In this document: in pieces, positions 1 to 4,256 of the stretch
Layout of the letters: each line of letters begins with the position of its first letter
Numbering within the stretch: the first letter of the stretch is position 1
IMG/VR virus record: IMGVR_UViG_2660238126_000004
From: a virus
Taxonomy: Duplodnaviria > Heunggongvirae > Uroviricota > Caudoviricetes
DNA: 4,256 bases
Direction: 5' to 3' (one strand)
Translations under genes and position numbers: made by a program
The notes under the pieces: generated by a model
What the model saw: only the letters and a program-made list of their open reading frames with translations
Database searches by the model: none
What the model was told of the DNA's origin: nothing

Positions 1-188
1 GCAATGGCACCAATCGCCAGACTGTCGGTAAACGGTGTGGCGTTCAGCGCGCTGTACGCTTCAATGGCATGGGTTAACGCATCAATGCCAGTCATCGCCG
101 TGACATGCGACGGCACACCTTCGGTCAGCGCGGCGTCGAGGATCGCCACATCCGGCATCAGCGAGGCATGGGCTAACACCTGCTTGCG
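1..188 (-). pseudogene. Internal fragment of an iron-containing (group III) alcohol dehydrogenase gene, EutG-like; truncated at both ends (window edge and junction at 188|189)
   Basis: Minus-strand translation of 1-188 is one open frame: [63 protein letters not shown]. The GxDALTHAIEAY block is characteristic of Fe-ADH family proteins. The match to ethanolamine-utilisation EutG is from memory only. No start or stop codon; the frame breaks at 188|189. Confidence 0.6.
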
Positions 189-402
189 GAAGGCTTCGTC
201 AACGAAGTTCAGGTTATCGCCACCGTGGTTTCTGTTAACCCGCAAGTTAACCCGGATATCGTCGCGATGATTGGTGCTTCCGCAGCACTGTCTCTGTCTG
301 GTATTCCGTTCAATGGTCCGATTGGTGCTGCTCGCGTAGGTTACATCAATGACCAGTACGTACTGAACCCGACTCAGGACGAGCTGAAAGAGAGCAAACT
401 GG
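189..402 (+). pseudogene. pnp: Internal fragment of polynucleotide phosphorylase (PNPase) gene, about 71 codons, no start or stop of its own
   Basis: Plus frame 3 from 189 translates [71 protein letters not shown], matching the first RNase PH-like domain of E. coli PNPase as I recall it. The match ends where PNPase should continue DLVVAGT and the sequence instead reads EAHLFSV, which is antisense lon. The ORF-track 'M' at 225 is an internal GTG valine codon. Confidence 0.85.
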
Positions 403-1965
403 AAGCTCACCTTTTTTCAGTGCATTACGTTCAATCTGCTTCGGCAGCAGGTGACGTTTGGCGATGTTCAGTTTTTCATCTTCGGTATAACCGGAGAGGC
501 GAATCACTTCCATACGATCCAGCAGCGGTGCCGGAATGTTCATGGAGTTCGACGTCGCGACAAACATCACGTCGCTGAGATCGTAATCCACTTCCAGGTA
601 GTGGTCGCTGAACGCTACGTTCTGCTCTGGATCCAGCACTTCAAGCAGTGCAGAGGCCGGATCGCCTCGCATGTCAGAAGACATTTTGTCGATCTCATCA
701 AGCAGGAACAGCGGGTTTTTCACGCCCACTTTCGCCATTTTCTGGATCAGTTTACCCGGCATAGAACCGATGTAAGTACGGCGGTGACCACGGATTTCCG
801 CTTCATCACGCACGCCGCCCAGCGCCATACGGACATATTTACGCCCGGTGGCTTTGGCAATGGACTGACCAAGAGAGGTTTTACCTACCCCCGGCGGCCC
901 TACCAGGCAGAGGATCGGTCCCTTGATTTTGTTGACACGGCTTTGAACCGCAAGGTACTCAAGGATGCGATCTTTCACGCGCTCCAGACCATAATGGTCG
1001 GTATCAAGGATTTCCTGCGCCTGACGCAGGTCTTTTTTGACCTTGCTGCGCGCATTCCACGGTACCTGTACCATCCAGTCGATATAACCACGCACTACGG
1101 TCGCTTCTGCCGACATCGGAGACATCATTTTCAGCTTCTGCAACTCTGCTTCCGCTTTCTCTTTTGCCTCTTTCGGCATCTTCGCCGCGTCGATTTTGCG
1201 CTTCAGGGCTTCGTTTTCGTCCGGCGCGTCGTCCATTTCACCGAGTTCTTTCTGAATAGCTTTCATTTGCTCGTTCAGATAGTACTCACGCTGGGATTTC
1301 TCCATCTGCTTTTTAACGCGGTTGCGAATGCGTTTCTCAACCTGCAGCAGATCGATTTCCGATTCCATCATTGCCATCAGATATTCCAGACGTTCGTTAA
1401 CGTCGGACATCTCCAGAACGGACTGTTTGTCAGCCAGTTTCAGCGGCATATGTGCAGCAATGGTATCCGCCAGACGCGCCGGATCGTCGATGCTATTCAG
1501 CGACGTCAGCACTTCTGGTGGGATTTTTTTGTTCAGCTTGATGTAGCCTTCGAACTGGCTGATTGCAGTACGCACCAGCACTTCCTGTTCCCGCTCATCA
1601 ATGGTCGGCGACTCCAGATACTCCGCCTTCGCAGAAAAGTGTTCGCCATTGTCAGAGAGCGCAGAAATACGCGCGCGCTGTAACCCCTCGACCAGCACTT
1701 TGACGGTGCCGTCAGGCAGTTTCAGCATCTGCAATATAGAGGCCACGGTCCCGACGGTGAAAAGATCGTTTACACCCGGCTCATCCGTTGAAGCTTCTTT
1801 CTGCGCGACCAGCATAATTTTTTTATCATGGTCCATCGCCGCTTCCAGACAACGGATAGATTTTTCCCGCCCGACAAATAAGGGGATGACCATGTGCGGA
1901 TAAACCACCACATCGCGCAGCGGCAATACGGGGATTTCAATGCGTTCAGAACGCTCAGGATTCAT
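403..1965 (-). CDS. lon: ATP-dependent Lon protease, N-terminal 521 codons only (N domain plus AAA+ module); the proteolytic domain is absent. The reading frame continues through 18 unrelated codons (antisense pnp) to a TGA at 346-348
   Basis: Translation from the ATG at 1965 reads [35 protein letters not shown]... and includes the Walker A motif GPPGVGKTS, ending ...[13 protein letters not shown] at 403. The expected continuation TVDDSAIIGIIRYY is replaced by [18 protein letters not shown] then stop. The ORF-track start at 2010 is 15 codons upstream of the real start. A purine-rich RBS (AAGAGAGAG) precedes the 1965 ATG. Confidence 0.95.
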
Positions 1966-2048
1966 AGAGCTCTCTCTTAGTTTAATTTCCGCCAGGTAAT
2001 CAGATGACACGACTGTGCTTCACGCCATCTATTAACATGTACGTCAGT

Positions 2049-2076
2049 ATATGGGGATGTTTCCCCCACATTCAAC
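2049..2076 (-). promoter_or_regulatory. lon sigma32 (heat-shock) promoter: -35 GTTGAAT and -10 CCCCATAT on the minus strand
   Basis: Minus strand reads CGTTGAATGTGGGGGAAACATCCCCATATACTGA. TTGAA (plus 2071-2075) and CCCCATAT (plus 2049-2056) are 14 nt apart, matching the sigma32 consensus CTTGAA-N13-17-CCCCATnT, about 85 nt upstream of the lon ATG. Confidence 0.65.
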
Positions 2077-2090
2077 GCCGAGAATAGAGG

Positions 2091-2126
2091 AAAAATTAAA
2101 GGGGAGATAAAATCCCCCCTTTTTGG
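2091..2126 (-). terminator. Rho-independent terminator downstream of clpX
   Basis: On the minus strand just after the clpX stop: CCAAAAA-GGGGGGAT-TTT-ATCTCCCC-TTTAATTTTT. An 8-bp GC-rich stem (one G-U pair) with a 3-nt loop is followed by a U-rich tract, and an A-tract precedes it. Confidence 0.6.
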
Positions 2127-2152
2127 TTAACTAATTGTATGGGAATGGTTAA

Positions 2153-3427
2153 TTATTCACCAGATGCCTGTTGCGCTTCCGGCTTACCATAAATCAGCAA
2201 CGGTTTGCTTTGACCATCAATTACCGACTCGTCGATAACCACTTTTTCGACGTCTTCCATGGACGGCAGATCGTACATGGTATCGAGCAGTGCGGCTTCT
2301 ACGATGGAACGCAGGCCACGGGCACCGGTTTTACGCGCCATCGCTTTCTTAGCGATAGCATCCAGCGCCTCGTCACGGAATTCCAGATCCACGCCTTCCA
2401 GATTAAACAGCGCCTGATACTGCTTGGTCAGGGCGTTTTTCGGCTCTTTGAGGATCTGAATCAGAGCTTCTTCGCTCAGTTCATTCAACGTTGCGACAAC
2501 CGGCAGACGACCAATGAACTCAGGGATAAGACCAAACTTGATCAGATCTTCCGGTTCAACCTGCGCCAGCAGCTCGCCTTCGCTTGCTTTGTCGGACTTC
2601 GCTTTTACCGTCGCGCCAAAACCAATGCCGGAGCCGGTTTCTACACGGTGGGAAATCACTTTATCCAGACCGGCAAACGCACCGCCACAAATAAACAGGA
2701 TCTTGGAGGTATCAACCTGCAAAAATTCCTGCTGCGGATGCTTACGCCCGCCCTGCGGTGGAACGGCAGCAACAGTACCTTCGATCAGTTTCAACAGTGC
2801 CTGCTGTACGCCTTCACCGGAAACGTCACGGGTAATAGACGGGTTGTCCGACTTACGAGAAATCTTGTCGATTTCATCGATGTAGACAATACCACGCTGT
2901 GCTTTCTGGACATCGTAGTCGCATTTCTGCAACAGTTTCTGAATGATGTTTTCAACGTCTTCGCCCACATAACCGGCTTCGGTCAGCGTGGTTGCGTCGG
3001 CCATGGTGAACGGGACGTCCAGCAGGCGCGCCAGCGTTTCAGCCAGCAGCGTTTTACCGGAACCGGTCGGACCGATCAGCAGAATGTTACTTTTGCCCAA
3101 CTCGACACCATTGCTGGTATCGCCGTTGCGCAGACGTTTGTAATGGTTGTATACCGCGACCGCCAGCACTTTTTTCGCCTGTTCCTGGCCGATAACGTAA
3201 TCGTCCAGGTGGTTGCGAATTTCATGCGGCGTCGGTAGCGCACTGCGTTCACGATGCGGTGCAACTTCTTTAATCTCTTCGCGAATGATGTCGTTACATA
3301 AATCAACACATTCGTCGCAGATATACACGGATGGACCGGCAATCAGCTTGCGCACTTCATGCTGGCTTTTGCCGCAAAAAGAGCAATACAGCAATTTGCC
3401 TGAGCCATCTTTGCGTTTATCTGTCAT
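2153..3427 (-). CDS. clpX: ATP-dependent Clp protease ATP-binding subunit ClpX (AAA+ unfoldase), complete, 424 aa
   Basis: Full-length [47 protein letters not shown]... with the N-terminal C4 zinc-binding motif, Walker A GPTGSGKT, Walker [10 protein letters not shown] and C-terminus ...[17 protein letters not shown] 6-8 nt upstream of the ATG at 3427; TAA stop at 2153-2155. Confidence 0.97.
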
Positions 3428-3485
3428 GGGTCAAAACCTCTTCTTTGTTCTTTGTGCCGCACACGACGACGCAAATGCCATTCTC

Positions 3486-3546
3486 AGGCGCAAGCCGCTT
3501 ACAGCGTTGTGCCGCCCTGGATAAGTATAGCGGCACAGTTGCGCCT
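3486..3546 (-). other. Nested inverted repeat (predicted RNA stem-loop) in the clpP-clpX intercistronic spacer
   Basis: Outer arms aggcgcaa (3486-3493) and ttgcgcct (3539-3546), inner arms gtgccgc (3509-3515) and gcggcac (3530-3536), are exact reverse complements. No U-run follows on the transcribed strand, so it is not a canonical terminator. Confidence 0.4.
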
Positions 3547-3552
3547 CTGGCA

Positions 3553-4176
3553 TCAATTACGATGGGTCAGAATCGAATCGACCAGACCGTATTCCACCGC
3601 TTCAGGGGCGGAAAGGAAGCGATCGCGCTCGGTATCACGTTCAATCTGTTCTAATGATTGACCCGTATGAAGCGCCATAAGTTCATTCATGCGCCCTTTA
3701 ACTTTCAGAATTTCACGGGCATGAATTTCGATATCGGTCGCCTGGCCCTGGTAGCCGCCCAACGGTTGGTGAATCATCACGCGCGAATTCGGCAGGCAAA
3801 AACGTTTACCTTTTGCCCCTGCGGTCAGCAAGAAAGCGCCCATCGAGGCCGCCTGGCCCATACAGATGGTGCTGACATCAGGCTTGATAAACTGCATGGT
3901 GTCATAGATAGACATCCCGGCAGTGATCACCCCGCCTGGGGAGTTAATGTACAGATAGATATCTTTTTCTGGGTTTTCTGCTTCCAGGAACAGCATCTGC
4001 GCCACAATCAGGTTAGCCATGTGGTCTTCAACCTGGCCAGTCAGAAAAATGACGCGTTCCTTAAGTAGACGAGAATAGATATCAAAAGAGCGCTCACCAC
4101 GTGAGGTCTGTTCAATGACCATCGGCACCAGCGCCATATGGGGTGCAAAGTTATCTCGTTCGCCGCTGTATGACAT
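3553..4176 (-). CDS. clpP: ATP-dependent Clp protease proteolytic subunit ClpP, complete, 207 aa
   Basis: Full-length [54 protein letters not shown]... containing the active-site serine context [11 protein letters not shown] and ending ...[11 protein letters not shown] at 4174-4176; TGA stop at 3553-3555. Confidence 0.97.
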
Positions 4177-4182
4177 TTCCGT

Positions 4183-4187
4183 CTCCT
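4183..4187 (-). promoter_or_regulatory. clpP ribosome-binding site (AGGAG)
   Basis: Minus strand reads CCAGGAGACGGAA-ATG; AGGAG lies 6 nt upstream of the clpP start codon. The clpP promoters are expected further upstream, beyond the window edge. Confidence 0.7.
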
Positions 4188-4256
4188 GGATAAAATTGAA
4201 AAAACCTGCTGTAAAGACGAATTAACGCGTGACCGTTCACTTCACTCATTCCCAGC

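Follow-up and report, generated by a model that had tools for sequence, protein, structure and literature searches.

Chimeras formed by ligation of one insert to another during library preparation join short, distant pieces of the same genome in random orientation, with 0–2 bp shared between the partners, and are confined to contig termini and to one deposit. The locus reported here has all of these features; a single chimeric tail is the more usual form, whereas here one end carries a double join. Chimeras from multiple displacement amplification (MDA) also arise in vitro, as would be the case here, and have short or no microhomology, as here; however, they reportedly join mostly nearby, inverted segments of one template, whereas the partners here lie 0.9–2.3 Mb apart, and such megabase distances argue against the usual MDA pattern. 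The lon gene is interrupted here as it is in disruptions by insertion sequences (IS) or transposons, and IS186 is found at the lon promoter of E. coli B. In contrast to such disruptions, the locus has no transposase, terminal inverted repeats or target duplication, and its "insert" consists of housekeeping-gene fragments. Hi-C and 3C junctions also connect distant loci of one chromosome, but a duplicated restriction site is expected in them and none was found at any junction here.

Identity and layout of the contig

By exact look-up of its chimeric Lon protein, the window (the whole stretch of DNA analysed, 4,256 bp) was found to correspond over its entire length, positions 1–4256, to contig CCBV01000298.1 (4,256 bp) in reverse orientation. 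This contig is record number 298 of GCA_000936365.1, a fragmented draft assembly. The pieces are ordered eutG' (188 bp), pnp' (215 bp), lon'-clpX-clpP (3810 bp), a lone A and mnmE' (42 bp), so that four loci meet at three joins and neither end is native. The features are as follows:

1..188, minus strand: internal fragment of eutG (100% identity, complete genomes), running off the contig end
187..188: junction 1, shared "CG" (base-by-base comparison with native loci)
189..403, plus strand: internal fragment of pnp (100% identity, many complete genomes including strain M8)
403..404: junction 2, flush (base-by-base comparison with native loci)
404..1965, minus strand: lon codons 1–520 plus 2 bases of codon 521, then native upstream region (match to M8, annotation)
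346..1965, minus strand: chimeric Lon ORF (translation)
2153..3427, minus strand: clpX, intact, in native position (ORF list, genome match, annotation)
3553..4176, minus strand: clpP, intact, in native position (ORF list, genome match, annotation)
4177..4213: native upstream region of clpP, 37 bp (genome match, base-by-base comparison)
4214..4214: junction 3, orphan "A" (base-by-base comparison)
4215..4256, minus strand: internal fragment of mnmE, 42 bp (100% identity, complete genomes), running off the other contig end

Since the window is a complete contig, all the foreign pieces are located at contig termini, i.e. at 1–403 and 4214–4256, and each join is followed by the next join or by the contig end within 42–215 bp.

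The first-pass annotation, made from the sequence alone, had recognised an internal minus-strand piece of an Fe-alcohol dehydrogenase gene at the left end. This piece (1–188) is nt 529–716 of the 1188-nt coding sequence of eutG, as annotated at the native locus, which encodes the ethanolamine-utilisation ethanol dehydrogenase. It lies in antisense, has neither start nor stop, and is 100% identical in at least 8 complete genomes among the BLAST matches listed, M8 being one of them. The adjoining plus-strand piece, also correctly named by that annotation, is an internal sense fragment of pnp (polynucleotide phosphorylase; nt 313–527 of the coding sequence, 100% identity) and is the only piece with junctions on both sides, measuring 215 bp, or 217 bp if the shared CG is counted. 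The segment-wise BLASTN that had been proposed as a check returned eutG for 1–188, pnp for 189–403 and lon from 404 onward in E. coli genomes. The abrupt changes of coding frame had been placed at 188/189 and about 402/403; the mosaic is real, but the second break lies at 403/404 and the first is ambiguous between 186/187 and 188/189, the "CG" at 187–188 being common to eutG and pnp. At junction 1 (slashes mark the breaks), native eutG reads ...CTTGCG/CCCGC and native pnp ...GTTCC/CGGAAGG. Junction 2 is flush, with zero shared bases and zero filler, native pnp reading ...CTGGA/TCTGG and the reverse complement of native lon ...GACGGTC/AGCTCACC. An 81-aa ORF (window 3–245, minus strand; deposited contig 4012–4254) crosses the eutG/pnp join.

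In the core, clpP, clpX and the 5' portion of lon (ATG at 1965) lie on the minus strand in their native E. coli order, and positions 404–4213 agree with strain M8 at all 3810 bases (0 mismatches). Truncation of lon had been described as a cut after codon 521; the gene is indeed truncated, but its contribution of 1562 nt comprises 520 codons plus 2 bases, so that the break falls inside codon 521, which still encodes Leu. The resulting ORF of 539 aa consists of 521 Lon residues and an 18-residue tail read from antisense pnp, with the stop at 346–348. In an index of exact proteins from public assemblies, this protein (deposited contig 2292–3911) was found on one contig, from one sample only. The core is also identical in genomes such as M8, GE3, 55989 and O104:H4 strains.

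A third junction, absent from the first-pass annotation, is present at the right end. The native sequence upstream of clpP ends at 4213, which is where the alignment stops in the best 40 rows of a BLAST of 404–4256, and from 4215 onward the sequence is that of mnmE (tRNA-modification GTPase), of which 4215–4256 represent a 42-bp internal antisense piece with 100% identity in complete genomes. The intervening "A" at 4214 fits neither parent, the native base being C upstream of clpP and G in mnmE.

Source of the pieces and search for the joins

Strain M8 (NZ_CP019953.1) carries eutG, pnp and the core at 100% identity at 2.848, 3.755 and 0.598 Mb, respectively (eutG, 2,848,401–2,848,588, plus strand; pnp, 3,754,828–3,755,042, minus strand; core, 594,762–598,571, minus strand). 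The three pieces are thus separated by 0.9–2.3 Mb in this strain, in agreement with the earlier statement that the genes lie at widely separated loci. Among the matches listed, M8 and GE3 occur at 100% for all three pieces and RM10466 for just two of them, eutG and pnp. Of the alleles, that of eutG discriminates, being present at 99% identity or more in only 194 of 5,426 genomes, and judged by sequence identity it places the isolate near the group sharing this allele. Since all pieces are 100% E. coli and three of them are found in M8, a single-genome source is indicated, and contamination from another organism was ruled out on the same grounds. The four genes involved are not repetitive and occur as one copy, the median being 1 place per genome.

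Each proposed segment was compared by BLAST with a reference set of 5,426 complete E. coli genomes. A genome in which the left end is collinear with one native locus, which would have spoken against a mosaic, was sought in this set: window 1–700 was found in one place at 80% coverage or more in none of the 5,426 genomes, and its parts mapped to three separate places in the median genome. For junctions 1 and 2, exact 30-mers spanning the join had zero matches in two large contig collections (genome_contigs and metagenome_contigs). None of the junctions was found in any other genome searched, the search for junction 3 covering the complete E. coli genomes. A literature search on CCBV01, GCA_000936365 and neighbouring WGS prefixes returned nothing relevant on the sequencing project or platform.

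Anatomy of the joins

The parents overlap by 2, 0 and 0–1 bp at the three joins, and one base is untemplated. No inverted repeats bound 1–403 or 189–403, where only scattered chance matches of 8–22 nt were seen, and no direct repeat of 3–12 nt flanks the pnp piece as a target-site duplication (the outer flank of eutG is the contig end). No transposase or mobility gene is present in 1–403, since eutG and pnp sequence, at 100% identity, fills the entire span. An insertion element was ruled out on this evidence: inverted repeats, a target duplication and a transposase are all lacking, and the "insert" matches housekeeping genes at 100% identity. The fill-in junctions GATCGATC, AAGCTAGCTT, CATGCATG, AATTAATT and CCGGCCGG are absent within 15 nt of all junctions, and no 12-mer of the TruSeq, Nextera, 454 or Ion adapter cores or of the 454 paired-end linker occurs anywhere in the window. 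The absence of inverted repeats, target duplication, transposase and GATC-type ligation sites at the junctions, as first noted by eye, was therefore borne out.

Of the six native breakpoints, five fall within or next to a palindrome of 4 bp (GCGC, CCGG, GA/TC, /AGCT and GTA/C), against a background of 0.28 per breakpoint (post hoc P for at least 5 of 6, about 0.015). In addition, junction 1 is the exact product expected from joining two 5'-CG overhangs, G^CGC of eutG and C^CGG of pnp, to give the hybrid GCGG. No palindrome recurs, however, and neither one enzyme nor one chemistry would place the cuts as observed; the association was treated as probably due to chance.

Origin of the mosaic

The first-pass annotation had offered three options, namely the scar of a rearrangement, a chimera in a clone or an assembly, and a constructed sequence, and had set aside an insertion element and a natural gene order. 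The present data agree with this and narrow the choice: as judged from the deposited sequence, the mosaic is very probably an artefact of the sequencing library or of assembly at the tips of the contig, and not part of the chromosome. Short fragments of a single E. coli genome would have been ligated end to end during library construction; one or a few concatemer reads may then have overlapped true lon on one side and the true upstream region of clpP on the other; and the assembler would have retained the foreign tails, 403 bp at one end of a short contig and 43 bp at the other, the contig then being deposited untrimmed. Overlaps of 0–2 bp are far too short for an assembler misjoin, so the joins must already have been part of the molecules that were read, or of the DNA before that. 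As flush or near-flush joins with an orphan base favour blunt or near-blunt ligation over homology-guided template switching, we infer that the joins arose in vitro by ligation and not by polymerase template switching. The only fully bounded piece, at 215 bp, has the size of a library insert. Counting against an artefact is the palindrome bias of the breakpoints, which simple random shearing would not predict. In PMC4735498, a junction covered by several independent reads is taken to speak against a technical origin.

It is very unlikely that the joins represent a real complex rearrangement, in which lon was broken at codon 521 and end-joined, independently of homology, to short copied stretches of pnp and eutG, and the region upstream of clpP likewise to mnmE. 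The junctions are present in the deposited sequence, 0–2 bp of microhomology with a 1-nt filler is typical of illegitimate joining, and lon is dispensable in E. coli. However, such an event requires three illegitimate joins, each independent of the others, within 4.3 kb and between four loci that lie megabases from one another; the contig would have to stop by coincidence 188 bp and 42 bp past the outer joins; the tested junctions occur in no related genome or contig; and the pieces themselves come from gene interiors and measure only 42–215 bp. We know of no E. coli mechanism that inserts internal housekeeping-gene fragments of this size. Less likely still is the specific form in which the isolate would bear a "patchwork" scar, the ends at lon and upstream of clpP having been repaired by homology-independent joining that captured fragments of pnp, eutG and mnmE. 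To our knowledge, classical NHEJ is absent in E. coli. If true, such a scar would be a bacterial counterpart of the insertions, templated or made of captured fragments, that are seen where eukaryotic double-strand breaks have been repaired.

A purely computational misjoin, with the assembler crossing between loci through a shared repeat or k-mer, would be in keeping with the location of the joins at contig ends of a fragmented draft, but is extremely improbable: the 2, 0 and 0–1 bases shared by the parents are far fewer than an assembler needs as overlap or k-mer, junction 3 includes a base from neither parent, and the four genes are neither multicopy nor repetitive. Least credible of all is a restriction-and-ligation protocol (Hi-C/3C or restriction-digest shotgun cloning) or a deliberate construct, for although junction 1 matches two joined 5'-CG overhangs and 5 of the 6 breakpoints touch a 4-bp palindrome, the five palindromes differ, their cut positions suit no one enzyme or chemistry, fill-in junctions (GATCGATC, AAGCTAGCTT) and vector, linker, adapter or marker sequences were not found, and the palindrome statistic is post hoc.

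With a library or assembly chimera as the preferred reading, the gene order in this window gives no grounds for a new element or rearrangement. For pipelines that scan genomes, an abrupt mosaic of several loci that lies a few hundred bases or less from the end of a contig is best treated as an artefact until reads contradict this. The public contig CCBV01000298.1 carries untrimmed chimeric ends, from which at least two gene calls, very probably spurious, have entered protein databases, namely the 539-aa "Lon" with a nonsense tail and the 81-aa ORF across eutG and pnp.
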